Assembly: GCA_964522405.1 (NCBI GenBank)
Contig: CAZFTR010000007.1
Span: 1-54,245 of the forward strand
Length of the DNA: 54,245 nt
From: an uncultured Gammaproteobacteria bacterium
GTDB taxonomy: Bacteria; Patescibacteriota; Patescibacteriia; Magasanikbacterales; UBA922
Direction: 5' to 3'
The position numbers were made by a program, and so were the translations under genes. The stretch's first letter is position 1, and each line of letters opens with the position of its first letter. The notes beneath the pieces are model-generated. The model was not told the DNA's origin and made no database searches. It worked only from the letters and a program-made list of their open reading frames with translations. Shown in pieces: positions 3,970 through 48,031 of the stretch.

Positions 3970-4524
3970 TTATCTAGTTTCTCTCACAAAAACCAACCTC
4001 CTCACCCCAACAAACCCCAACTCAACAGCTCCAACGAGAATCCCTGTATAAAACAAATCACCCATCAAACTATTCCGAAAAAACGGCACAGCCATGGCAT
4101 AGCTCTCCATCAAACCAGCAAAATTGTGAACATACATAGTTCCAAATGCCCAAACTGCTGCGTTTGTAATTAGGAAAAACAAAACTGACCCAAGTACTGT
4201 TCCGCCGAGGATTGTATGCCATTTTTTATTTCGCTTCACAAGTCTTCCTACTGCAAACATGAGTACAAAACTTGTGTAGACTGCCAACATGACCCTCCAA
4301 TCATAGAGACCAATGATTAGATCACTAGTAAATAGAGCAACTAGGGGAACGACTAGGTAAATTCTCCGTGCCATATAGATCCCTGAGAAGATTGCTATCG
4401 CTCCTATAGGTGCAAAGTTTGCCGGGTGATCTATTAGCCGAGCGCTGAATCCCAGTATTATCAGCAGAACTACTATTCCCATTTTTACTAATTCTCCCTT
4501 TTCCCATTCTCTAAATTTTTTCAT
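3970..4524 (-). CDS. Small polytopic membrane protein, candidate B12 permease (solitary ECF S-component / DUF6580-like)
   Basis: 184-aa ORF with about 5-6 hydrophobic helices and an ANFAPIGAIAIFSG motif. It is the distal gene of a cobalamin-riboswitch-led operon. The function is inferred from context only. Confidence 0.7.
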   Translation of the reverse strand: MKKFREWEKGELVKMGIVVLLIILGFSARLIDHPANFAPIGAIAIFSGIYMARRIYLVVPLVALFTSDLIIGLYDWRVMLAVYTSFVLMFAVGRLVKRNKKWHTILGGTVLGSVLFFLITNAAVWAFGTMYVHNFAGLMESYAMAVPFFRNSLMGDLFYTGILVGAVELGFVGVRRLVFVRETR

Positions 4525-4900
4525 ATCTAAATTCTATTATCGTGTCTGGCGCAAGCACTAACCCCTCATTGTATTCTTGTTCCTCTCCGTTTATATATAA
4601 GATCCATTTTTTCAGCTGTGTTGAAAGTATTCCATCTAGTTCTGTAATCACTTCTTTGTCTTGCATCTGTGATTTGATCTCTAACTGCAGTTCTTCTACT
4701 ATTTTTCCCAGTTCTGTATCTGTTTCTGAGAAGAAGGATTTTTGTTCTACACCATTTAGTCCTGTTCTCACTTTTACTATATATTCCATTCCAGTTACTG
4801 TTGGTTCATCTGGGACTTGCTCTATTTCTTTTTTGGCGCAGCCTGTGCCGAGTAGGAGTACGACTGACAAAACTAGGAGAATTGTTTTTGTGTTTTTCAT
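4511..4900 (-). CDS. DUF4430-type (transcobalamin beta-domain-like) lipoprotein
   Basis: 129-aa ORF. Signal peptide with lipobox LLGTGC. The C-terminal segment WILYINGEEQEYNEGLVLAPDTIIEFRY resembles DUF4430. Confidence 0.75.
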   Translation of the reverse strand: MKNTKTILLVLSVVLLLGTGCAKKEIEQVPDEPTVTGMEYIVKVRTGLNGVEQKSFFSETDTELGKIVEELQLEIKSQMQDKEVITELDGILSTQLKKWILYINGEEQEYNEGLVLAPDTIIEFRYEKI

Positions 4901-4924: not shown

Positions 4925-5058
4925 TGTCATCCCGAGCGACAGCCGAGGGATCCCTGTCTATTCAGTAAAATGAGCGAATTAAGAATGAAATACTGTACTG
5001 CATAGACAGGGATCCCTCGATTCCGTCTGCTTTTCAGCAGACTCCACTCGGGATGACA
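4925..5058. repeat. MITE/REP-like palindromic element, copy A
   Basis: Termini are TGTCATCCCGAG ... CTCGGGATGACA. Inner arms are CGAGGGATCCCTGTCTAT / ATAGACAGGGATCCCTCG. The reverse complement of its right half matches the left half of the copy at 11712-11859 at about 50 of 57 positions. Confidence 0.7.
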
Positions 5059-5064
5059 ACTTCA

Positions 5065-8000
5065 TTATACCAGAGTCTTCAGCAACCTCCAACCTAGAAA
5101 TGCTCCTGCTGCCAGACTTGCAGCAAGTGCGCTACCAAATACTTTTCTGGCTGTTTTTTGCAATGGTCCTTCGCTTGATATTTCCTGATCTCCTACTAAA
5201 ACCGCTTCTTTCTGGTTTTCCTCATCTACTGGTTCTTCTGGTTTATCATCAGACAGTGGTTCAGCTAGGACCTGTTTTTCAAGTTCCTTTTCTTCTACTT
5301 GCTCTTCAGCAACCGCAGTCACTGGTATTTCTACCACTGGATTTGTGGCAGTCTGGCGTGGACTTGTGTCTGTTGAAGTTTGTGGATTAACCTCATGGGA
5401 TTTTTCTTCTTTAACTGGCTGGTCTTCTAGCATCTCTTCTGTTTCTATTATCTCATTCAAAGTTTCCTTTTCTTCTATAATTTCTATTTCCGGAACTTTC
5501 ACTGTCAAAAGATCAATCAATGAAATCGTTTTCTTTACTTCTTTTTTTGGTGCTGCCGGTGGTGGGGCAGGGGAATCATTTACCACTGTTTCTACTACCA
5601 ATGCACTTGCATCCCATGAGGCAGAGATTACCTGCAAGGCATATGATGTTGACCAAACTTGGTTGCTGGTTCCAAAACTTCCGTCTGAACTCTGAGAATC
5701 TAGTAAGTACTTAAGTGGGTTGGTTGAGTTTATGCTCCAGTCAGATAAATCTGTTTCTCCAAGTTCAAATAACGCATCTAGTGCCCAACTGGTTGTGTCT
5801 ATGTTATTGTTTATGCTTCCATCTGTTTGCAAGCTCTCTTTTAGTTCTGATCGAAGGCTTACTACTTGCTCATCAGAAGAATTTTTTGTAACTAGAAGTG
5901 CTCGAATTGTTGCTGCGCGCAAATCCAGTCCTGAAACGAAATTTTCTACTTCCAGATTGGTTTCCATATAGCTTGTAAGCTCCAGAATTAGCTCTGAACA
6001 ACAATTTAATGAGTCCAGGCTAAGAATACCGAATATTACTTCATTTGCTGCTAAATTGTCTTCTAAAAGACCTTGCTCAAGAATAGGCACCAGTGTTGTT
6101 TGAAACCCATTAGTTTCCAGTCCTAGTGCTGTTCTGGCTAATATTTGTCTCTCAATTCCTGTAGTAATTTGATCAATTTCTTGTGCGCTTAGATATGTTT
6201 TTAGTGAATCTTTACTTGTTTGCAAGCCACTATAATCTTCAGTAATATCTCCATAAGCAATCGCAACCCAATCTGAGAACATTTCACTGCCAAAGCCACC
6301 GTCTTGATCCTGATTTGCAATTAGAAATTGGATTGCAGAATAGATTGCCGACTGAAACTGATCATATGTGTTTGTGTTCGGATCAGGATCACCGCCACTT
6401 GCTGGTGGAGAGGCTGGCGGTGAAGATGGGGGAGTTGTATCATCTTCCTCCTCTTCTACAATCGGCTCAATTCCTGTCACAGTGGTTTCAGCACTATCCA
6501 CAAATCCAGTTTTTGTACCACTGATTGTATATGTTGTTGTAGTTGTTATTTCTAGAGAATAGACTCCGTCGGTTGTGGTCACTACTTCTGAATTGACTGT
6601 CACACTACTACTTGCAGCAGCAGACCAAACAGGAGAGAATGTTGCAGGATCAAAGCCAAATTCCAGGACTGTTAGATTTACATTTGTTCCAACTTCCTGA
6701 TTTGCGCTTGAAGATTCAATTCTAAGCGGCATTGTTCCATAAGTAAGCAGAATTTGATCAGTTTCACTGGGAATATATTCATTTAAGGCTTCACTGGCAA
6801 AGTCTAAATTATGGAAAAATGCCCACCAGTTCCAGTCTGTTCCATCATAGCCATTTATTTTTGAAAGAAAAACTTGTCCATCATAGTTTGAACCTTCTAC
6901 AGTCCAGTCTTCCTGTGCTCCAAGTTGTTTGATTGCACACCAAGCACTTAGAGCATATTCACCACTGTCTTCTACAGCTTCACAAGCAGTAAACTCAAAA
7001 CTTCCATTGAACAGTGTTGTGTCATAAGTCTCAATTTGAATATTTGTGATTGCTGTAGGAAGTGCAGGAGTTATACTAATTTCTGAGCTGGCAATAAAAC
7101 CAGCTTTACTAGTGCTTGCAATATATGTTGTTGAGCTACCTGTAGTTAAAATATAAGTTCCATCAGCTGAATCATATCCAATCCCATTTATGGTAACTGT
7201 TGAGCTGGATGACTCAAGCCAAACAGGGGAGTAGGTAGTAGGATCAAAGCCAAATTCATAAGCTGTAATAGTTGTTTCAGCTCCAAAAGCAGGAGAAAGA
7301 TCACTGACTTCAATTTTCATGGGCATGATTCCGTAAGAAAGTAATATATCCTCGCCATATGCTGGAATATATTCGTTCAGTGCTTCACTTGCAAACTCAA
7401 GATTGTGAAAAAAAGCCCACCAATTCCAATCTGCTCCATCATAGCCATTTATTTTTGAAAGAAAAACTTGTCCATCATAGTTTGAACCTTCTAGTGTCCA
7501 GCCTTCTTGGATTCCTAGCTGGTCAATGGCACACCAAGTACTTAAGCTATAGGTTGTTTGACCTTCTGCAATTGGACACTCTGTATAAGTGAACTCTCCA
7601 CTATATAAAACTTGATCATATGTTTCCAAGTGTAGATTGACCGCATTTGTTTCAAGAGCTTCAAGAGTAAACGACAAAGAAGTAGAAAGTTCTGCAAATT
7701 CAGAAGAATTTACAGAAACAGTATTCTCTGTAACTCCATCACGAATCAGACATTCTTCACTTAGTAGAAATGAATTTGAAACTGAATTCAAATTAAGTGT
7801 ACTTGAAACAGTATCCACTCTATCCAGGATATTTAGTTCTATGCTCAGTTCTCCGCTTGTATCACAAACCGGCTCAGCATATTCAAAACTAATAATTTCA
7901 GTATTTTCTATTGCAGAGCTTGCTGAAATACTAACGCTTCCTGGATTAAAACTATTTAAATTAATCTCAGATGAGCTTGTTGTGGCTCCATGAGCAACAC

Positions 8001-8079: not shown

Positions 8080-8641
8080 TTAAATTATTTTTAGTTATTA
8101 AATTATTTGAAATCCCAACCTTAGCTTTTTCTCCATCTACTGAATAAATCCAGTATTTATTAGATTTTGGATTATTTTTTACTCCATTTATCTCTGTTAC
8201 CATTTCTCCAAGAGTTTTTCCGTAATCTCTTGTAGTAAAACTAAAATCTGTTGAGTCTTGCATCAAGTTCATAACTTCCTGAACAGTTTTTTCACCTTCA
8301 AAGTCTAGGGTGTAAGTTTTTTCACCAACAATAAGTTTTGTGCCTACAGCTTCTGTTTTTACTGGAAGAATTTCGATTTTTAGATCTTTTACTTCTTTTT
8401 TTTCTACTTGAGAATTTGGAAGATCTTGCGTTTCCATGCTTGCTCTTGAGTCTTCCTCGCTTTCAAGTTGAAGATCTTGTTCAGTGTTGTAGTTTACATC
8501 CTCTGATTTTGTATTTATTGGAAGTTTTGAAACTTCATTTTCTGCATCAGAAAAAGCAAAATATCCGCTAATTGCAGTTACTAGAACAAAAGCAATGAAA
8601 ACAAATACCACTAATTTATGTTTCTTATAAAATTCAGACAT
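8048..8641 (-). CDS. Membrane-anchored DUF4430 domain protein
   Basis: 197-aa ORF with an N-terminal TM helix. The C-terminal segment GVKNNPKSNKYWIYSVDGEKAKVGISNNLITKNNLIEWTYE resembles DUF4430. It is the first gene after the riboswitch. Confidence 0.75.
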   Translation of the reverse strand: MSEFYKKHKLVVFVFIAFVLVTAISGYFAFSDAENEVSKLPINTKSEDVNYNTEQDLQLESEEDSRASMETQDLPNSQVEKKEVKDLKIEILPVKTEAVGTKLIVGEKTYTLDFEGEKTVQEVMNLMQDSTDFSFTTRDYGKTLGEMVTEINGVKNNPKSNKYWIYSVDGEKAKVGISNNLITKNNLIEWTYEDSEY

Positions 8642-8654
8642 AAAAAAATCTTTT

Positions 8655-8880
8655 CCGAGAAGAAAAGATTATCTAAAACAATAATTACCTTCCTGCTCGG
8701 GATACACGCGTATTTGCAGATCGGACTCATGGCATTTTCCATACAAGCACAGTTCAAGAAAGCGTACTTGTATGGCGTAGTTCGCCCGCAGGCGAACGAA
8801 GCCATATTACCGTTGCGGCACAGTCAGGGGATCTCACCCTAGTTCCGACTCTGAAAATTTCAGAGCTGTCCATTTGGACA
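8655..8880 (-). promoter_or_regulatory. Cobalamin (B12) riboswitch
   Basis: The minus-strand RNA contains GGGUGAGAUCCCCUGACUGUGCCGCAACGGUAA, which fits the conserved GGUGnnAAUCC...CCGCnACnGUAA core. It also contains a B12-box-like GCCAUGAGUCCGAUCUGC. A hairpin at 8648-8669 with a U-run abuts the ATG at 8641, giving a terminator or RBS-sequestering platform. Confidence 0.7.
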
Positions 8881-8904
8881 CAAATAGCGGTTAGTTGTAA
8901 TGGG

Positions 8905-8933
8905 ATTATATACAGATATTTTTTATATGTCAA
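8905..8933 (-). promoter_or_regulatory. Sigma70-type promoter of the riboswitch-led operon
   Basis: The minus strand reads TTGACA (8933-8928), a 17-nt spacer, then TATAAT (8910-8905). Both hexamers are exact consensus. Confidence 0.6.
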
Positions 8934-9055
8934 TTATGTACTTAGGATAAGAAGTTAATAAAAAGTGGATAACAAATTTATATAAAAGATAAGATACATA
9001 GAGTAATATACAAATAAAAAAATACACGGAATTTATTATAAACTTTACTTAAAGT

Positions 9056-9088
9056 TTGTATTTTATTCCATGTATTTTGTATATTGTC
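9056..9088 (+). promoter_or_regulatory. 33-nt conserved motif, copy 1 (TTGTATTTTATTCCATGTATTTTGTATATTGTC)
   Basis: 30 of 33 positions are identical to 35599-35631, which lies just upstream of dnaG. Function unknown; a promoter or leader element is possible. Confidence 0.4.
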
Positions 9089-9093
9089 GATGC

Positions 9094-9841
9094 TTAGAAA
9101 CTATAGTGGGTCGGGTGCTCGTTGTTGTTCCATTCGTGACCCACCGGGGCGTTGTTGCCCCTTGGGGTCATTCGGGCGGGTTCCGGAAGTGCTTCGGCAA
9201 GTACTCGTCCTCACAGCCGGTGACGCCGGTGACCCTCTCCGGGATCTCCCAGGTGGTCATGGTCTGGCCGTCGTGGTACTTGGACCAGGTCTGCTTGGCC
9301 CGGAAGCTGCGCACGCAGCCCTTGTTCCCGAACTTGGTGGAGATGGCGTAGATCTGAGCCCAGATGCGCTGCTCGCCGTCGAGGAACGTCTTGTAGACCG
9401 AGACCTCGATCTGGTCCCAGCGCAGGGCATGCTCCTCCGGGATCTCGAAGACCGCCTTGCGCACGAAGCTCTCGTCCTCGACGATCTTGCCCATGATGCG
9501 CTGCAGACCCGTGGAGTTGGGGCTGTCGCACTTGTCCGGGCAGATCCAGAGCTCGGCGGTCTGCAGGTTGTCCCGCAGGAAGCTGATGTCGCTGCCCACG
9601 TAGTGCAGGTCGAACTTGGGGTTGCGCCAGTAGTCGTACTCCGGCGTGGAGGGCTCCGTCGTCTCGACGGTGCTCAGAACGGGTTGCGTCTGCTCGGAGC
9701 TGACGCGGTTGGGGATGGAGGAAACGGGGGAATCGATCATGTCCTTCTTGGCACACGCGGAAACCGCGAGAGCCAGGAGGAGAGTGATGAGAATTCTCAA
9801 GACTGTCTTTCCTTCCAACGAGCACCCACTATAATTTCTAA
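9094..9841. mobile_element. GC-rich islet 1: 748-bp unit bounded by 23/28-nt terminal inverted repeats, carrying one lipoprotein gene and no transposase
   Basis: TTAGAAACTATAGTGGGTCGGGTGCTCG (9094-9121) was compared with the reverse complement of CGAGCACCCACTATAATTTCTAA (9819-9841). 22 of 23 aligned positions match, with one 5-nt indel. The interior is about 63% G+C (38/60 counted at 9241-9300) against 16/60 at 9901-9960. Confidence 0.55.
9168..9800 (-). CDS. Hypothetical lipoprotein encoded in GC-rich islet 1
   Basis: The frame has almost all G/C third positions. A TTG start at 9800 gives MRILITLLLALAVSAC (lipobox VSAC), with SD GGAAGGAAAG 6 nt upstream. A GC-rich hairpin (9138-9169) sits at the stop. 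The track ORF extends to 9860 through AT-rich DNA. No family recognised. Confidence 0.7.
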   Translation of the reverse strand: MRILITLLLALAVSACAKKDMIDSPVSSIPNRVSSEQTQPVLSTVETTEPSTPEYDYWRNPKFDLHYVGSDISFLRDNLQTAELWICPDKCDSPNSTGLQRIMGKIVEDESFVRKAVFEIPEEHALRWDQIEVSVYKTFLDGEQRIWAQIYAISTKFGNKGCVRSFRAKQTWSKYHDGQTMTTWEIPERVTGVTGCEDEYLPKHFRNPPE

Positions 9842-9863
9842 TTAAGTTGTAAAAGAACAAAGA

Positions 9864-9892
9864 AATATAGCATAAAAAAAGACTTTTGTCAA
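9864..9892 (-). promoter_or_regulatory. Promoter-like TTGACA-17-TATATT pointing into islet 1
   Basis: Minus strand: TTGACA (9892-9887), 17-nt spacer, TATATT (9869-9864). The surrounding TCTTGACAAAAGTCTTTTTTTA recurs upstream of islet 4. Confidence 0.45.
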
Positions 9893-9938
9893 GATAACAA
9901 CTTGCTTTTTTGGCTTAAATAAGCTAATATATGTCCAT

Positions 9939-10907
9939 ATGTGGATAAATAAGTTTTTAGAAAACAAGCAAAAAATCCTGGCACTTTCACCAATGGCAGA
10001 TATGACTGATTCTGCCTTTTGTCGCGTAGTCAGAAATATTGGTGGTGCTGATATTGTATTTAGAGAAATGGTTAGCAGTGAGGCTCTTATTCGAGATAGT
10101 GAAAAAACTCTCAAAATGACAGATTTTCACGAAGAAGAGCGACCAATTGTTCAGCAAATTTTTGGTGCAGATCCTCAGAAAATGGCTCAGGCTGCTAGAA
10201 TTATTCTCGACAGAAATTCTCCTGAGGGAATTGACATAAATATGGGTTGCCCAGTCCAGAAATTAACCAGTCAATTCAACGGCTCAGCTTTGATGAAAGA
10301 TCCAGAACTAGCGGGTAAAATAGTAAGGGCTGTAAAAAAGGAGATAGGAGATGTGCCTTTGTCAGTGAAAATTAGACTTGGTTGGTCAGATCCGGATGAT
10401 TTTAAAACTTTTATTCCAGTCCTGGAAAAAGCTGGAGCAGATCTAATTACAATTCACGGCAGAACTCGAGTCCAGGGATATTCTGGCACAAGTGATTGGG
10501 AGAGAATCAGACAGGCAAAAGAACTTGCAACTGTTCCAGTTCTTGCCAATGGAGATATCCACGAGCCACATCAAGTGGCAGAAGCGCTGGAGCAAACCGG
10601 ATGCGATGGAGTTATGATTGCTCGGGGAGCTCTGGGGAATCCCTGGTTTTTCAAGCAAGCTCTTGACCCGGAATTTAGAGTTAGTCTAGAAGAGAGAATA
10701 AAAATAATACTTGATCACGCAAAGCTACATATTGAAGAATACGGAGAAAAAGCTCTAGTTACATTCCGAAAACATCTGGCTTGGTATTTTAAAATAAATA
10801 AACTTGGTTTTGAGCTTGAGGGAATTAAGCAGTTTAGAGCTAGATTGGTGCGGGTTTCGACAATTGATGAGTTGGCTGATATACTAAATGAGCTTTTAGA
10901 TAGGTAA
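9939..10907 (+). CDS. dus: tRNA-dihydrouridine synthase
   Basis: 322-aa ORF. LSPMADMTDSAFCRV, INMGCPVQK and the HGRT/ANGDI motifs are typical of the Dus family. Confidence 0.9.
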   Translation: MWINKFLENKQKILALSPMADMTDSAFCRVVRNIGGADIVFREMVSSEALIRDSEKTLKMTDFHEEERPIVQQIFGADPQKMAQAARIILDRNSPEGIDINMGCPVQKLTSQFNGSALMKDPELAGKIVRAVKKEIGDVPLSVKIRLGWSDPDDFKTFIPVLEKAGADLITIHGRTRVQGYSGTSDWERIRQAKELATVPVLANGDIHEPHQVAEALEQTGCDGVMIARGALGNPWFFKQALDPEFRVSLEERIKIILDHAKLHIEEYGEKALVTFRKHLAWYFKINKLGFELEGIKQFRARLVRVSTIDELADILNELLDR

Positions 10908-10945
10908 TATATGAAACCAAAAGAAGAGAGAAAAATTTCATAAAC

Positions 10946-10976
10946 AAAAAACTCATAGAAATCCTATGAGTTTTTT
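10946..10976. terminator. Bidirectional rho-independent terminator between convergent dus and the GT2 gene
   Basis: AAAAA-ACTCATAG-aaatc-CTATGAGT-TTTTT: an 8-bp stem flanked by A and T runs. Confidence 0.6.
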
Positions 10977-10986
10977 AATAGAGATC

Positions 10987-11685
10987 TTATTTTTTCCCAA
11001 ATTTCAACTTAAACATAACCACAAAAAACTCAATTATGTCTTTTCTGCTTAGTTTTGATTTTCCTTCTTGGCGATCTACAAAAACTACTGGAACTTCTGC
11101 AACTCTAAATCCCATTTTTTCAGTTCTATAGAGCATTTCTTCTTGAAAAGCATAGCCATTGCTTTTAATCTTATCCAGTTCTATTGATTGCAGTACTTTT
11201 CTACTAAAACATCTAAATCCTGCAGTGACATCTCTGGTTTTTAATCCGAGAAACATTTTTGAAAACCACATGGCTCCGTTGCTCATAAATTTTCTGGTCC
11301 AACCCCAGCCGACTACCTGTCCACCGGGAATTTTTCTAGATCCGATTACCAGATCTGCGTTTTCTGCAGCTCGTAACATCTCCTTTAGATCTGCTGGATC
11401 ATGAGAAAGATCGGCATCCATTTCATATATATAATCAGCTCCGAGTGATAATGCTTTTTTGAATCCGGCTATGTAGGCTGAGCCTATTCCTTGTTTTGAT
11501 TCTCTTTCAAGTATATGAATAGGAAAATTCTGAGAAAGTTTTTTTGCTATTTCTGCTGTACCGTCTGGTGAATTATCATCTACTACTATTATTTCAAGAT
11601 TTGGTATTTCCTGCTGAAAAACCCGCTTGATTAGAATTTCAATGTTTTTTGCTTCGTTGTAGGTGGGGATAATTATTGTGGGCAT
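10987..11685 (-). CDS. Polyprenol-phosphate mannosyl/glycosyl transferase (GT2, Dpm1-like)
   Basis: 232-aa ORF. IIIPTYNEAKNI, VVDDNSPDGTAEIA and MDADLSHDP motifs. The C-terminal segment FVDRQEGKSKL is typical of polyprenol monophosphomannose synthases. Confidence 0.85.
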   Translation of the reverse strand: MPTIIIPTYNEAKNIEILIKRVFQQEIPNLEIIVVDDNSPDGTAEIAKKLSQNFPIHILERESKQGIGSAYIAGFKKALSLGADYIYEMDADLSHDPADLKEMLRAAENADLVIGSRKIPGGQVVGWGWTRKFMSNGAMWFSKMFLGLKTRDVTAGFRCFSRKVLQSIELDKIKSNGYAFQEEMLYRTEKMGFRVAEVPVVFVDRQEGKSKLSRKDIIEFFVVMFKLKFGKK

Positions 11686-11711
11686 GAAAAGTAGAAAGTA
11701 AAAATAGAAAG

Positions 11712-11859
11712 TGTCATCTCGAGTGAAGTCTGCTGAAAAGCAGGTAATCGAGAGATCTCTGTCTATATAGCTAAGGTAAAATTTTTATTCATTCGAATAT
11801 TATATTGAAAAGGATCTCTCAACTTCATTTTTCTTTCAGAAAATTCCGCTCGAGATGAC
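11712..11859. repeat. MITE/REP-like palindromic element, copy B
   Basis: Termini are TGTCATCTCGAG ... CTCGAGATGAC. The left half TGTCATCTCGAGTGAAGTCTGCTGAAAAGCAGGTAATCGAGAGATCTCTGTCTAT matches the reverse complement of copy A (4925-5058). Confidence 0.7.
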
Positions 11860-32248: not shown

Positions 32249-32407
32249 AAGAAAAGGAATTGAAAAGCTGGAAATGTTTGAAATACTTTTCATTATCCAT
32301 GATATTATATTCAATCATCATGTTTTTGTAAATAAGACAGCTTGAGTTGATAGTATTTGAAAAGTTTGAAGGATTTTTAATGAAAACTTGGTTTATTCTT
32401 CTGAAAA

Positions 32408-33120
32408 GTGCCTGCGCCGTCCGCCCCGAAGAGAGAACAGCGCCAGGCTCGTCGTCGTCGGGGCGAAGGGCATGTTGGAAGTGGCATCACTCGGTGACGA
32501 CCTCCACGTCCTCCTTGCGGGTGAAGCTCCAGCGCAGCGAGAAGCGCTCGCCCTCCTCCGTGCTGTAGTTGACCACGAAGGAGCTGTACTCCTCCCAGGC
32601 GCGGTGGAAGATGGCCTGCAGAGCCAGTCGCTCGTCGCGGTCACCATGCTTGCTGATGTGCGCGTTGGCGTCGCCGCTGTTGTGGGACACACAGCTGAGC
32701 ACATCGCCGGTTTGCAGACGGAATCTGCGTATCCGCTGGTTGAGATCTCTGCGCATCACCTCGGCCAGGGCCTTGGCTCCGCCCATCTCACCCAGGAAGG
32801 TGAAAATGGTGACCCGACCGTCGGTGCTGGTATGCACCAGCGCGCCGTAGTTGTGGCCGAGAGCTGCTGAGATCAGCGCAGCCTGGAAATAGGCCGCACT
32901 TCTGGTCATGCGCGAGACCTCGAAGCGCGCGTCGGCATCGAGGAAGATGCGCCGACCCCGTCTGTCGTAGCAGTGAACCAGACCCAGCCCCTGGTCATTG
33001 CCTCCGGAAGTGTGCTCCATGCGCAGAATCCGCTCGGCGTTGTCTTCAGCGAGAGCAGGTACTGCCCGAATAGTAAGCATTATGCTTTCTCCTGCGGGAA
33101 AACCCGCTCAGTCAACTATG
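32408..33120. other. GC-rich islet 2 (compositionally foreign segment with one ORF)
   Basis: There is an abrupt AT-to-GC switch at both ends, and long shadow ORFs on several frames. It is flanked by the imperfect direct repeat AGTATTTGAAAAGTTT (32352-32367) / AGTATTTGCAAGTTT (33142-33156). Confidence 0.6.
32487..33080 (-). CDS. Hypothetical protein encoded in GC-rich islet 2
   Basis: 197-aa ORF (MLTIRAVPALAEDNAERILRMEH...) in the frame with G/C-rich third positions. ATG start, with SD AGGAGA 7 nt upstream. No family recognised. Confidence 0.65.
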   Translation of the reverse strand: MLTIRAVPALAEDNAERILRMEHTSGGNDQGLGLVHCYDRRGRRIFLDADARFEVSRMTRSAAYFQAALISAALGHNYGALVHTSTDGRVTIFTFLGEMGGAKALAEVMRRDLNQRIRRFRLQTGDVLSCVSHNSGDANAHISKHGDRDERLALQAIFHRAWEEYSSFVVNYSTEEGERFSLRWSFTRKEDVEVVTE

Positions 33121-35353: not shown

Positions 35354-35598
35354 AGTGATGTGAAAAAAACAAAATACATGGAAAAAAATACAAGATAGAC
35401 TATGAATTAATCGAATGTCTTTCTTGATAAGTTTATATCTTATTTTGTGTATTCTCTTTTTTATCGTAAAGTATATCATATTATCCTGCATATTGCTTTT
35501 TCGACTCAAACGAGCTAAGCTACTAAAATAAGAGACAAAATACCTGGAATAAATTACAAGACAGAAGATCATTTAATCTAATTTCTTATTAAGTAAGA

Positions 35599-35631
35599 TT
35601 GTATTCTATTCCATGTATTTTGTATCCTGTC
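35599..35631 (+). promoter_or_regulatory. 33-nt conserved motif, copy 2 (TTGTATTCTATTCCATGTATTTTGTATCCTGTC)
   Basis: It ends 9 nt upstream of the dnaG ATG. 30 of 33 positions are identical to 9056-9088. Confidence 0.4.
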
Positions 35632-39016: not shown

Positions 39017-39543
39017 GGGGCCGGTATGCAAATTCCGGCAAGGTTCGATAAAAGGGAGGAGCTGATGAAGCTCGAATACGACGGTAGCATCTTCGAGATC
39101 ACTGAGGACGCGCATGCGCGTGCTTCGGCTCGGGGAGAGCCGGTCTACGTGGGAGGAATCGGCTTCCTTCGCATGACCACAGACGGGATCACGGAGTTCC
39201 CGATCATCGAGGCCAAGGAGGCTGCTGACATCGAGAAGTTGGATGGACTGGCGCTCATCGAGCACAGCAATCGCTTCTTCGCCATCCTGGAGGGCGAGGC
39301 CGACAACGACGTCAACGTGCTGCTCGTGAACGGAATCGTGGTCTGCGTCGAGCGCTGGAACGATGGTGGTACTGGGATCCTGCAAGCCCAGGACTACCGG
39401 CGGGTCTTCCTGCACAGCGGCGACTACATCGGCAGGGCTGACTGAGATCGAGAGCAGCAGAAGTGGGGGTGGCACATGCCTGTCGTGGCGCCCTGACTCA
39501 AGGACGCTGCTTCCGTGGGGCGCGAAGACACGCCCCAGACCTC
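39017..39543. other. GC-rich islet 3
   Basis: The composition switches from AT-rich to GC-rich after the rpoD terminator. It holds one GC3-rich ORF. The 3' hairpin is TGGGGCG-cgaagaca-CGCCCCA (39516-39537). Confidence 0.6.
39065..39445 (+). CDS. Hypothetical protein encoded in GC-rich islet 3
   Basis: 126 aa (MKLEYDGSIFEITEDAHARASARGEPVYVGG...). ATG preceded by SD GGGAGGAG. The track ORF starts 35 codons earlier in AT-rich DNA. No family recognised. Confidence 0.65.
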   Translation: MKLEYDGSIFEITEDAHARASARGEPVYVGGIGFLRMTTDGITEFPIIEAKEAADIEKLDGLALIEHSNRFFAILEGEADNDVNVLLVNGIVVCVERWNDGGTGILQAQDYRRVFLHSGDYIGRAD

Positions 39544-39585
39544 TTATGAATATTAAAACATAGTATTTATAAGAAGTCAGTATCT

Positions 39586-39622
39586 AAAAAAGAAAAGACT
39601 CTTGACAAAAGAGTCTTTTTTT
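39586..39622. terminator. Terminator-like hairpin in the AT-rich spacer between islets 3 and 4
   Basis: AAAAAAG-AAAAGACTCTT-gaca-AAGAGTCTTT-TTTT. The loop and 3' arm overlap the -35 of the islet-4 promoter-like element. Confidence 0.5.
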
Positions 39623-39630
39623 AATATTTT
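39602..39630 (+). promoter_or_regulatory. Promoter-like TTGACA-17-TATTTT pointing into islet 4
   Basis: TTGACA at 39602-39607 and TATTTT at 39625-39630. TCTTGACAAAAGAGTCTTTTTTTA (39600-39623) matches 9894-9873 (minus strand) apart from a 2-nt indel. Confidence 0.45.
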
Positions 39631-39635
39631 ACTTG

Positions 39636-40147
39636 CAGAATTCGTTCGGCCGTCAAGCGGTCGATTTTGAGACTTGGTGCAGTACCTTGGAGGTGGCTGT
39701 GATTCGCAAGTTGGGTACTAATGTCTACGTTGAGGAGAGTGTGGTCAGTCGGCACCTGCGCTTGATCAGCGCTTTTCCGAGCTCTGAGGAGCGCTGCCGG
39801 AGCTGGCGCATGAGCAGGACAGTGAGCTGGTTCGTCTTTCGCGGGCACTACTTCAGCTTCCGTCTCAAGCATGCCTGCCATGGCCTGCTCATCCGGTTGC
39901 CGCTGGTCGAAGAAGACGGCAGCGAGATCATCGTCCAGGTGACCGGCTGGAAGCAGCATGAGTTCCGCCGCAGTCCTAGCACTCGTCGGCGCAACCTCAA
40001 TCCCTGGATCAAGCCGGCCGGTGTCCAGCAGGTCGAGATCTCGGAGGTCGGCGACTAGTACACATTCCGTCCGTCGCCTCCACCAACTTCATCACCAGGT
40101 CTCACAGGGGGAGGGGGGGCGATTCAATCAGCCCCTCCGAGACCAAC
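39636..40147. other. GC-rich islet 4
   Basis: The segment is GC-rich. It ends with a strong hairpin GGTCTC..GGAGGGG...CCCCTCC..GAGACC (40098-40144), followed by AACTATGTACTTTTATT. Confidence 0.6.
39699..40058 (+). CDS. Hypothetical protein encoded in GC-rich islet 4
   Basis: The plus frame has roughly 80% G/C third positions, against roughly 55% for the antisense 112-aa ORF (hand tally). A GTG start at 39699 is preceded by GGAGG. The track ORF starts at TTG 39633. The product is 119 aa (IRKLGTNVYVEESVVSRHLRL...). No family recognised. Confidence 0.55.
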   Translation: MIRKLGTNVYVEESVVSRHLRLISAFPSSEERCRSWRMSRTVSWFVFRGHYFSFRLKHACHGLLIRLPLVEEDGSEIIVQVTGWKQHEFRRSPSTRRRNLNPWIKPAGVQQVEISEVGD

Positions 40148-40177
40148 TATGTACTTTTATTGAGTATTTAGTCGGCT

Positions 40178-42772: not shown

Positions 42773-42807
42773 AATACACCTTTAAATATTTTCACAAATA
42801 TGCAAAA

Positions 42808-43257
42808 GGGTTGAGGGCGTCGCGCGTGTCGCCGCCCTCTGAAGTCGCCAAGAGGTACATCGCAGAACCGGCCACCGCGAATGTGGGTGGTGTCGGTCGT
42901 CGATCTTCTCTCTAGGCGTGGGTCGAGTGTCCGACGTCGCCGTCGCTCAGCTTCTTCATGGTGCTGGCGATGAAGACCAGGAGCGGGTTGTTCTTGAGGT
43001 CGACTTTGCCGGGGAACGTGATGTTCCAGGTGTCCGGCTTGCCATGCCGCTCGATCAGCTCCACCTTGTTGCTCCTGTGCAGCTCGTTGAGCTGCTGCAG
43101 CACCCAGCCGGCGTTGATGTTCAGGCTCGGGTCGATCTGAAGCAGGCTCTTGCAGAGCTCCTCAGCAGTCTGTGGATCGTTGCCGTCAATCAACAGAAGC
43201 AGGATCATGGTTTTCTTCATCTTTTCCCTCCAGGGAAAGAGCAGTTGTGTAGACGAG
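42808..43257. other. GC-rich islet 5
   Basis: A GC-rich segment between the convergent DsbA-like and clpB terminators. The 3' hairpin is GAGGGCG...CGCCCTC (42813-42839), followed on the minus strand by AACCCTTTTGC. Confidence 0.6.
42912..43220 (-). CDS. Hypothetical protein encoded in GC-rich islet 5
   Basis: 102 aa (MKKTMILLLLIDGNDPQTAEELCKSLLQIDPSLN...). ATG at 43220 is preceded by SD GGAGGGAAAAG. The track ORF starts 15 codons earlier. No family recognised. Confidence 0.6.
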   Translation of the reverse strand: MKKTMILLLLIDGNDPQTAEELCKSLLQIDPSLNINAGWVLQQLNELHRSNKVELIERHGKPDTWNITFPGKVDLKNNPLLVFIASTMKKLSDGDVGHSTHA

Positions 43258-46795: not shown

Positions 46796-47551
46796 ATGAT
46801 ATTGCTCGGAATACGAATAGATAATCTGTCAAAAAAAAAGGCGATTGAAAAAATTGTTAATTTTTTGGACGGTGGACAACATAAAATTTTTACTCCAAAT
46901 CCTGAAATGTTGGTTGATGCAAGTAGGGATGATTATTTTAGAGAAGTTCTTAATAGTGGCTCACTTAATATTTGTGATGGTTCTGGTATAAAATTAGTTT
47001 CAAAAGAAAAAATACAGAGAATTCCAGGTATTGATTTCATGTTAGATATTTGTCAGGTTGCAGAAAGTAAGGGTAAGAGTATTTATCTACTTGGATCTGG
47101 AAGTAGAGAAGTGCTTGATAAAACTATTGTTAATTTAAAATTAAAATTTACGAATTTACGAATAGCCGGCTCAAATCAAGGTCCAAAAATAGAAATGCAG
47201 AAAGAAAATGAAAGAATAGTGAATAAAATAGACCAGAATCAGAACGAGCAACTAGTTGATGATATAATAATGGCAGCTCCTGATATATTATTTGTTGGAT
47301 TTGGTCACTCTAAACAAGAAAAATGGATTGATGAAAATTTATCACAACTTCCAAGTATAAAAATCGCTATGGGAGTTGGTGGATCATTTGATTATATTGC
47401 CGGTAAAATAAAAAGAGCACCAAAATTAGTGCAGAGAATAGGATTTGAGTGGTTGTGGAGATTAATTCATCAGCCAAGTCGAATTAAGAGAATTTATAAA
47501 GCAACAGCAGTATTTATGTTTAAGGTTTTTTTTACAAAAAAAGCTCTATAA
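46796..47551 (+). CDS. WecB/TagA/CpsF family glycosyltransferase
   Basis: 251-aa ORF. FTPNPEMLV, GIDFM, FVGFGHSKQEKWI and RAPKLVQRIGFEWLWRLIHQPSR motifs. Confidence 0.85.
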   Translation: MILLGIRIDNLSKKKAIEKIVNFLDGGQHKIFTPNPEMLVDASRDDYFREVLNSGSLNICDGSGIKLVSKEKIQRIPGIDFMLDICQVAESKGKSIYLLGSGSREVLDKTIVNLKLKFTNLRIAGSNQGPKIEMQKENERIVNKIDQNQNEQLVDDIIMAAPDILFVGFGHSKQEKWIDENLSQLPSIKIAMGVGGSFDYIAGKIKRAPKLVQRIGFEWLWRLIHQPSRIKRIYKATAVFMFKVFFTKKAL

Positions 47552-47554
47552 AAT

Positions 47555-48020
47555 GTGTGACCCTCGCGTTCGTGCGAACCGAGGGTCGGGTAGCGGTGAT
47601 GGCGTCGACTGGGCCGGTTGTGTTGTTCAGGCCACGAGGCTGAGCGCGGCGAACGGAATACGGGAACCCGTGTCCTGATCCACGATGCAGTCTTCGATCT
47701 CGGCCTCGCCAGTCTCCTTGCGGAAGAACATGACGAAGTCAATGTTGAAGCTTACGCCGTTCATGGCGCAGATGCGCCCGTGGATGCGAACCCGAACCCC
47801 GTGTTGGTTCTGGTTGAGCTCGTAGATCACCAGCTTGCCAGGCCGATGCCACTTGCCGTTGCTGTCTCGGCAGCCAGTGGTCATACGTCCGAAGTAGACC
47901 TGAGCCATGGGCTCGAGATCATGCGGAATTGCCAGCACATGATGCGCCGGCAATCGGCGTACGAGTGCATCGCCGATTTCCTCCCTGGTATACATTGTTG
48001 CGGACCCTCCGTGTCCTCTA
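47555..48020. other. GC-rich islet 6
   Basis: The GC-rich segment begins 4 nt after the WecB-like stop. The hairpin is GACCCTCG-cgttcgtgcgaac-CGAGGGTC (47559-47587). Confidence 0.6.
47627..47995 (-). CDS. Hypothetical protein encoded in GC-rich islet 6
   Basis: 122 aa (MYTREEIGDALVRRLPAHHVLAIPHDLEPMAQVYFGRMTTGC...). ATG at 47995 is preceded by SD GGAGGG. The track ORF starts at TTG 48031. No family recognised. Confidence 0.6.
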   Translation of the reverse strand: MYTREEIGDALVRRLPAHHVLAIPHDLEPMAQVYFGRMTTGCRDSNGKWHRPGKLVIYELNQNQHGVRVRIHGRICAMNGVSFNIDFVMFFRKETGEAEIEDCIVDQDTGSRIPFAALSLVA

Positions 48021-48031
48021 ATTCTGAACAA

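Follow-up and report, generated by a model that had tools for sequence, protein, structure and literature searches.

Islet 1, a GC-rich unit of 748 bp at positions 9094-9841 of contig CAZFTR010000007.1, raises the question of why a single lipoprotein gene should be bracketed by the two arms of a long inverted repeat, and of whether those arms act in the DNA or in the RNA. The stretch analysed here (the window) comprises positions 1 to 54,245 of that contig, taken from assembly GCA_964522405.1 of an uncultured bacterium that GTDB places in the Magasanikbacterales. GC content is 36% over the window and 61.5% in the GC-rich stretch of islet 1 (~9081-9800). An earlier note on this DNA, made from the sequence alone, had offered three readings of the bracketed unit: a non-autonomous terminal inverted repeat (TIR) element with a passenger gene, foreign DNA inserted into the loop of a host hairpin, and a stem between the two ends of the mRNA. 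We found that the inverted repeat is real and far beyond chance. Its most likely role, which we propose tentatively and hold with less than even confidence, is that of a helix between the 5' and 3' untranslated regions (UTRs) that closes the lipoprotein mRNA, rather than that of transposon ends.

The inverted repeat and the gene it encloses

The repeat and the gene comprise the following features:

9094-9124, minus strand: left arm of the inverted repeat, 3'-UTR strand of the predicted closing helix, with a 5-nt bulge (repeat detection and duplex folding)
9816-9841, minus strand: right arm of the inverted repeat, 5'-UTR strand of the predicted closing helix, UUAGAAAUUAUAGUGGGUGCUCGUUG (repeat detection)
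9168-9800, minus strand: orphan lipoprotein gene, 210 aa, with TTG start, signal peptide and lipobox, MRILITLLLALAVSAC (codon-position GC and translation)
9807-9816, minus strand: Shine-Dalgarno (SD) sequence GGAAGGAAAG, immediately 3' of the helix, with 6 nt between its end and the TTG (read from the sequence)
9137-9170, minus strand: GC-rich compound hairpin that includes the stop codon (UGACCC..GGGGC..GCCCC..GGGUCA), with no U-run after it (predicted fold)

Repeat detection reported two sub-pairs, 9094-9111/9824-9841 (18 nt, 94%) and 9113-9124/9816-9827 (12 nt, 100%), which are joined here. The left arm reads TTAGAAACTATAGTGGGTCGGGTGCTCGTTG (31 nt) and the right arm, when reverse-complemented, TTAGAAATTATAGTGGGTGCTCGTTG (26 nt), with 25 of 26 positions identical and one 5-nt insertion in the left arm (CGGGT, an imperfect tandem copy of TGGGT). 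The gapped boundary alignment of islet 1 scored 43, compared to a mean of 18.6 and a maximum of 34 in 2000 shuffles and a maximum of 30 among 2114 window pairs of the same spacing that served as a real-sequence control. The recomputed alignment bears out the repeat described in the earlier note and extends it by 3 nt. Complementarity stops at 9094/9841, and the flanks alone gave p=0.23, indicating that the repeat is discrete; a longer palindrome continuing beyond it was rejected on the same value. The repeat is also composite, with 14 AT-rich nucleotides on the outside and 12 GC-rich nucleotides on the inside, and it does span the AT/GC transition as had been claimed. We found no direct-repeat target duplication, as the flanks GATGC and TTAAG are not repeated. 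Only a palindromic TA could count as one, and this TA is itself part of the repeat, which leaves the earlier statement that no obvious target-site duplication is present standing with this one ambiguity.

The possibility that the repeat is a chance similarity, or that the locus is an assembly or amplification chimera, is effectively refuted. Weak inverted matches are plentiful in AT-rich DNA, and gene callers mis-annotate islet 1, both of which could speak for such an artefact, but the alignment score lies far outside the shuffles and the real-sequence controls, and islet 1 is a complete gene with an SD sequence, a signal peptide and strong codon-position periodicity. Similar islets also occur in metagenome-assembled genomes (MAGs) of many studies. 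Moreover, two independent public assemblies contain both junctions, one in a Logan contig from SRR8146441 that spans window positions 8412-11855 and the other in a Logan contig from SRR8146440 that spans 9089-11127 (each 100% identical to the window), so islet 1 is not an assembly chimera and the chimeric junctions considered in the earlier note are not the case. The orientation of islet 1 is the same in all three assemblies (the window and the two Logan contigs). Logan contig L002 starts at 9089, 5 nt outside the repeat; as an inversion or empty-site variant should give k-mer branch points at other positions, we draw no inference from this start. Exact-protein look-ups placed the same strain in four samples, with contigs that either carry the islet or end before it.

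The gene runs on the minus strand from TTG at 9800 to a stop at 9168, with a GC content of 0.53/0.42/0.925 at codon positions 1/2/3, as is characteristic of a true reading frame. GC content at third codon positions (GC3) in 42 other open reading frames (ORFs) of the window ranges from 0.12 to 0.38, with a mean of 0.25. As read from the translation, the N-terminus contains the lipobox VSAC, in agreement with the pattern [LVI][ASTVI][GAS]C, suggesting that the product is a bacterial lipoprotein of the Lgt/LspA substrate type. These observations uphold the TTG-start lipoprotein gene with lipobox and SD sequence that the earlier note had read here, and the hairpin that it had placed at the stop codon is likewise predicted.

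In public gene calls the antisense ORF is annotated in place of this gene (218 aa; window 9189-9845, plus strand; L001 778-1434), so the true lipoprotein is not in protein databases; the antisense product used as a query recovered only itself. Homology and structure searches with the lipoprotein found no homolog in the libraries used. It matched no family in Pfam, NCBIfam, PHROGs or PADLOC, a word-indexed search of 5.8 billion clustered proteins found no homolog, and tblastn against plasmids and phages gave no match. An exhaustive phmmer search of 1.84 billion representatives yielded no true homolog, its sole match (P0001) being rejected as an artefact, a low-complexity protein with a 14-fold identical repeat. 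The single-sequence AlphaFold2 model was poor (pLDDT, the predicted local distance difference test, 48.7) and Foldseek found no match to it in the PDB with E <= 0.001, and we therefore make no statement about the fold. Paralogy with a host lipoprotein at 4511-4900 was considered and rejected, as the likeness is confined to CAKK.

A candidate helix closing the lipoprotein mRNA

Four further features define the predicted transcript and its surroundings:

9864-9892, minus strand: host-type sigma-70 promoter P1, TTGACA, 17-nt spacer, TG-n-TATATT (agrees with the consensus at 11 of 12 positions and has TG ahead of the -10 box)
9842-9859, minus strand: AT-rich leader block TGTTCTTTTACAACTTAA, kept upstream of two other GC-rich lipoprotein genes, in L022 and L008 (sequence comparison)
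9010-9087, minus strand: long hairpin, AT-rich and with a U7 tract, where the lipoprotein transcript probably terminates (38-nt arms, z = -5.2; host repeat motif)
8905-8933, minus strand: promoter P2, TTGACA, 17-nt spacer, TATAAT, of the downstream riboswitch-DUF4430 operon (12 of 12 consensus positions)

P1 lies 22 nt upstream of the right arm, with a predicted transcription start near 9857, and near-identical promoter sequences stand before other genes in two relatives (L006 and L093). The predictions place no intrinsic terminator in the stretch from the stop codon to the left arm, and the first terminator-like structure after the stop codon is the hairpin 9087-9010, placing both arms within the predicted mRNA. 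In the fold of the 748-nt RNA, the arms are paired in both the minimum free energy (MFE) and the centroid structure (z = -6.7), and for the predicted transcript of 853 nt the pair probability is 0.9-1.0 at most of the 26 pairs. The arm duplex has an energy of -35.9 kcal/mol. The sole substitution between the arms gives U·G when read as mRNA and A·C when read as antisense. The helix stops one base short of the SD sequence, whose mean unpaired probability in the predicted ensemble is 0.37. Neither the leader nor the helix matched an Rfam family, be it in the window, in L008 or in L022.

We propose that islet 1 is a single promoter-less GC-rich cistron for a lineage-specific surface lipoprotein, which sits in the divergent DUF4430/Dus intergenic region and would be transcribed from the host-type promoter P1 outside the repeat. 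The arms would then be the 5'-UTR and 3'-UTR strands of a helix of 26 bp with a 5-nt bulge (about -36 kcal/mol) that ends 5' of the SD sequence. The role of such a helix would be post-transcriptional, as its length is typical of the substrate of a double-strand RNase (RNase III type) and it would tie the two mRNA ends together. It might serve to cut the cistron out of read-through transcripts and fix its half-life, or it might hold back further translation initiation after synthesis of the 3' end.

Two related loci share the leader. The right arm continues an AT-rich leader block, and in L022, where Dus is 70% identical to that of the window and is preceded by three GC-rich cassettes, the distal cassette, truncated at the contig end, encodes another lipoprotein (MLRSIFLALCATLSTVAC...) whose protein sequence is not similar to the one in the window. 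The 5' boundary of this cassette matches the right arm and 17 nt further upstream at 32 of 43 nt, with six changes specific to L022 in the 5' arm, and it is the best match of the 47-nt leader in 2.4 Mb (score 22, compared to a null maximum of 19). A search of 1.38 Mb for exact copies of a core 13-mer, TGTTCTTTCAAAT, gave two sites, one in L022 and one in L008. The L008 copy lies upstream of a third GC-rich lipoprotein gene, again an unrelated one, and there a local leader hairpin of 25 bp with a tiny loop comes directly after the leader block. The L008 gene has a perfect 14-bp complementarity of its own (CAAGCAAAGAGGCT) between its 5' UTR (7386-7399) and 3' UTR (6114-6127), and this stem, unrelated in sequence to that of the window, closes the mRNA in the MFE and centroid structures. 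A stem of 14 bp was reached by 0 of 300 shuffles, and the maximum among 42 host genes was 13. A closing stem is thereby present in both complete genes that carry the leader, with differing stem sequences, and in 0 of 14 other GC-rich islet genes. An RNA-level helix would be expected to keep its architecture while its stem sequence varies, as seen here, which would not be expected of the sites of a transposase or recombinase. A leader motif seemingly shared with L013 and L018 (TAGAAGCTACGGGTGCGGGTG) was rejected as a loose pattern that also matches unrelated sites.

As a separate observation, the L022 cassettes, from a related MAG, form an array at positions 1-1960 upstream of Dus with short AT-rich spacers between them, encoding the lipoprotein, a 355-aa membrane/coiled-coil protein and a 99-aa protein.

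Among the three readings of the earlier note, the 5'/3' stem closing the mRNA is the best supported, gaining from the dominance of the predicted fold, the promoter placement, the G·U mismatch and the L008 stem. Several points weigh against it. The transcript ends are predictions, and an RNase III is presumed for this genome. Only two complete examples are at hand, the L022 gene being cut by the contig end, and a single G·U-compatible change falls that way with a 50% chance. A near-perfect repeat of 26 nt is longer than most known regulatory UTR pairings, the SD sequence and start codon are not covered by the helix, and the repeat could equally be a recent duplication at the DNA level that has no function.

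If the arms do pair in the mRNA, the closing helix would be a variation on a known regulatory principle. The hok mRNA is inhibited by fold-back. Pairing between the 5' UTR and 3' UTR is described for icaR of Staphylococcus aureus (PMC3868564) and for hbs of Bacillus subtilis (PMC5737220). These three appear to be the closest working analogues of islet 1, as in each case the 3' UTR pairs with its own 5' UTR at or near the ribosome-binding site and the double strand controls translation and RNase attack. In contrast, the helix of islet 1, which is a prediction only, is longer (26 bp versus roughly 6-20), lies just upstream of the SD sequence rather than over it, and belongs to a GC-rich orphan gene in a Candidate Phyla Radiation (CPR) genome. 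RNase III processing stalks, which have defined cleavage sites, bracket rRNAs and the early cistrons of phage T7. They resemble islet 1 in that long helices formed from both flanks of a functional RNA unit allow its excision from a longer transcript; islet 1 differs in bracketing the mRNA of a single cellular lipoprotein, whose cleavage we infer. If the helix works as proposed, it would rank with the longest closing stems that occur naturally between the 5' and 3' UTRs of a bacterial mRNA and would be the first closing helix suggested for the CPR, where gene regulation is almost unknown and where surface lipoproteins probably mediate attachment to host cells.

DNA-level explanations of the bracketed unit

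Relatives of the neighbouring Dus gene assign the host to Candidatus Magasanikbacteria (CPR). The DUF4430/Dus spacer was compared with that of relatives, the closest of which by Dus are only 72-74% identical, and the comparison with empty sites rests on distant spacers only. Many relatives share the gene order big surface protein, DUF4430, Dus and GT2, with a DUF4430-Dus spacer of 290-520 bp that contains a cobalamin-riboswitch-like leader and divergent promoters. The spacer holds no extra genes in L084, L012, L008 and L111 and other small genes in L023, L026/L107 and L022, which indicates that it is an insertion hot spot. Compared to the arrangement in relatives, the window has in addition islet 1, a 160-nt AT-rich stretch with the hairpin 9010-9087, and promoter P2, which marks the far edge of the extra DNA. 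Two side observations concern the same spacer. A probable cobalamin riboswitch lies upstream of the DUF4430 gene at 8784-8866 (minus strand, reaching ~8890), with an AdoCbl-II match of 21 bits (E=0.06) that is under the gathering score, and riboswitch-like sequence is kept at the same place in many relatives (L084, L012, L008, L111, L023, L026). A host repeat motif, TATTCCATGTATTTTGTAT, is present in 4 copies versus 0.07 expected (9010-9087, 35367-35393, 35533-35559, 35599-35626) and forms long AT-rich hairpins in two intergenic regions, one of them adjoining islet 1, where it may act as an operator or terminator.

Against this background we weighed three ways in which the repeat could have arisen or could act as DNA. 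A mobile insertion cassette (MIC) or a cargo-carrying miniature inverted-repeat transposable element (MITE), that is, a non-autonomous TIR element with a passenger gene mobilized in trans, would account for sharply bounded terminal repeats of typical insertion sequence (IS) length at the exact unit ends, for DNA that is extra relative to the ancestral synteny and for a related end sequence beside different cargo in L022, and the TA on each side could be a duplication of the IS630/Tc1 type. We nevertheless consider such an element quite improbable, and this first reading of the earlier note went unsupported. The TA belongs to the palindrome and hence is no evidence of duplication. A 17-mer of the arms, TTAGAAAYTATAGTGGG, occurs in the window only at the two arms and is absent from 160 other loci; the 26-mer pair has no further copy in the 54-kb window or in the related loci searched (162), and a fuzzy search of 1.38 Mb returned one related site only, the single arm in L022. 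That likeness runs 17 nt past the supposed TIR, which is unexpected for independent insertions and is better fit by a conserved leader than by a transposon end. Twelve single matches of the 17-mer in viral contigs diverge right after it, look like chance and were rejected. The gene's promoter also lies outside the unit, and other GC-rich islets have no TIRs. Among the 48 window ORFs inspected, of which 16 were scanned with Pfam (including ten unassigned) and the rest read as housekeeping genes, there is no transposase, integrase or recombinase, either as the cognate enzyme that the earlier note had envisaged elsewhere or, in keeping with its observation, inside islet 1. MICs and MITEs as defined in PMC3129680, with the qnrS2 MIC as an example (PMC5444012), share with islet 1 the terminal inverted repeats around one non-transposase gene and the lack of a transposase inside. 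However, a MIC is marked by IS-family ends, target duplications, multiple copies and its cognate transposase; apart from the ambiguous TA, none of these was found for islet 1 in the DNA searched, and the likeness of islet 1 to its one related copy extends past the repeat. Site-specific or homologous recombination between the arms could alternatively flip the gene relative to the fixed P1, producing ON/OFF phase variation of the surface lipoprotein. Such invertons and phase-variable lipoprotein loci include Salmonella hin/hix, the invertible promoters of Bacteroides and Mycoplasma vsa/vpma, and islet 1 resembles them in its inverted repeats, in a short segment beside a fixed promoter and leader, in its surface lipoprotein and in its conserved 5' leader. 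The 26-nt repeats surround a 692-bp segment (748 bp including the arms) with the promoter just outside and the SD sequence and gene inside, a surface lipoprotein is a classic object of phase variation, leader and arm are kept before a different lipoprotein in L022, and the L008 lipoprotein gene is likewise bracketed by repeats. An inverton is still improbable, as there is no recombinase nearby among the ORFs scanned, the whole gene lies inside the segment, and a single orientation was seen in the three assemblies. The arms have no internal dyad symmetry of the kind found in hix, lox or dif-type core sites, their halves not being mutually complementary, one arm carries a 5-nt insertion, and the L008 repeat is only 14 nt long and unrelated in sequence.

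The arms could also be a scar of the origin of islet 1, without present function, if the cassette entered the loop of a leader hairpin or palindrome that was already there, or if one junction was copied in inverted orientation during repair. We regard this as unlikely, less so than a mobile element or an inverton. The homologous leader position in L008 carries the local 25-bp hairpin, and a gene in such a loop would give the architecture of the window, meaning that the second reading of the earlier note, foreign DNA in a host hairpin loop, may describe how the repeat originated. The insertion hot spot in the spacer, the composite repeat with host-like AT-rich sequence outside and GC-rich sequence inside, and the 5-nt duplication at the inner end of one arm, which could be a repair scar, are consistent with such an origin. 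However, the arms of the L008 hairpin and those of the window are little alike beyond AATTAG, gene insertion directed at hairpin loops has no known mechanism, and five other window islets and seven in relatives have no such arms. Identity at 25 of 26 positions without selection would moreover require a very recent event, yet the right arm is kept in L022, whose Dus is 70% identical. An origin by insertion into a hairpin and a present function as a closing helix are not mutually exclusive.

Two further cassette types were tried and rejected. Integron cassettes resemble islet 1 in combining a promoter-less SD sequence, one orphan ORF and a 3' hairpin with non-host composition, but islet 1 has no attC R''/R' core sites and no intI, and the GC-rich units are dispersed rather than arrayed; we found no RYYYAAC or GTTRRRY boxes in 9094-9167 and no integrase among the window ORFs inspected. 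A pdif-type module, flanked by 28-bp Xer sites, was rejected because the arms show no 11-6-11 dyad. As a side observation, the 17-mer TTAGAAAYTATAGTGGG stands directly after a terminator hairpin (AGGCCATGAAGGCCT), in a promoter-like position, in viral contigs L163, L166, L167 and L170, and is probably unrelated to the window.

Other GC-rich islets and structures in the window and clade

At least five more GC-rich single-gene islets are present in the window (32381-33110, 39041-39545, 39640-40160, 42800-43250 and 47541-48025), with a GC content of 57-63% and a GC3 of 0.72-0.86. Every window islet is shaped like a transcript, in that its GC-rich stretch begins 24-60 nt ahead of the start codon and reaches to a hairpin that follows the stop, and each has its own SD sequence, with -35 and -10 boxes of host type in the AT-rich flank outside. 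Pfam, NCBIfam, PHROGs and PADLOC returned no family for these five islets; the protein of islet 2 had no homolog, and islets 2, 3a and 5 had no plasmid match. When the alignment test used for islet 1 was applied to the boundaries of 12 other GC-rich islets, five from the window and seven from relatives, none gave a significant repeat, with L008 marginal. The inverted repeat is therefore not a general delimiter of islets.

GC-rich islets also occur in related genomes. A GC3-rich (0.78-0.90) lipoprotein family lies just downstream of Dus in conserved synteny, with 32-48% identity between species (L013 6625-7503, L018 6526-7314, L019 6411-7274 and L020 6487-7383; also L091, L092, L096 and L100), and it has a conserved structured leader (..AGCTAGAAGCTACGGG..GACGC..GCGTC..). 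The identity of 32-48% in synteny indicates that GC-richness persists through speciation and is not only a sign of very recent transfer. The idea of a foreign splice needs care. The GC-rich DNA is delimited as described, and GC-rich islets of one gene each are general in the clade and seem to be long-lived. We found no paper on GC-rich islets in Patescibacteria in the literature. Across the islets, GC3 is 0.72-0.93 compared to 0.12-0.38 in the other genes of the genome; islets of this kind are present in many related genomes, partly in conserved synteny, and their genes have no detectable homologs. These persistent, transcript-shaped orphan GC-rich genes of AT-rich CPR genomes, some of which share a leader and bracketing helices, may be the more interesting lead, and such genes may be systematically mis-called and overlooked.

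It is conceivable, if doubtful, that Magasanikbacteria carry an undescribed kind of gene cassette. Such a cassette would be transcript-shaped, GC-rich and promoter-less, with a short 5' UTR and SD sequence, one orphan ORF and a terminal hairpin, would stand behind host promoters, and would keep a GC3 of 0.7-0.9 for long periods in genomes of 36% GC without relatives in ~15 billion proteins. A subset would consist of surface lipoproteins that share an AT-rich leader block and are bracketed by long helices, islet 1 being the clearest case, and the bracket could mark capture of the unit, as foreign or host-derived DNA or cDNA, into a leader hairpin, together with mRNA processing.

Other structures were seen elsewhere in the window. 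An inverted repeat at 20291-20324/21182-21215 (34 nt, 82%) was rejected as a mobile element, as it consists of paralogous coding segments on opposite strands; these segments (..IKRHIINEKVF.. and ..IKHYIINENVF..) lie in genes flanking tRNA-Gln. Between the gene of a 1004-aa surface protein and a host lipoprotein gene there is a nested structured element (4930-5055, minus strand) with a 10-bp outer stem (TCATCCCGAG/CTCGGGATGA) and a 24-bp hairpin (96%), for which Rfam gave no match at the gathering score. Finally, terminator-promoter fusions, in which a hairpin has TTGACA in or next to its loop and is followed by a T-run and a -10 box, recur across the clade, with sites at 39590-39635 and 9864-9895 in the window, 6040-6075 in L006 and 4981-5010 in L093.

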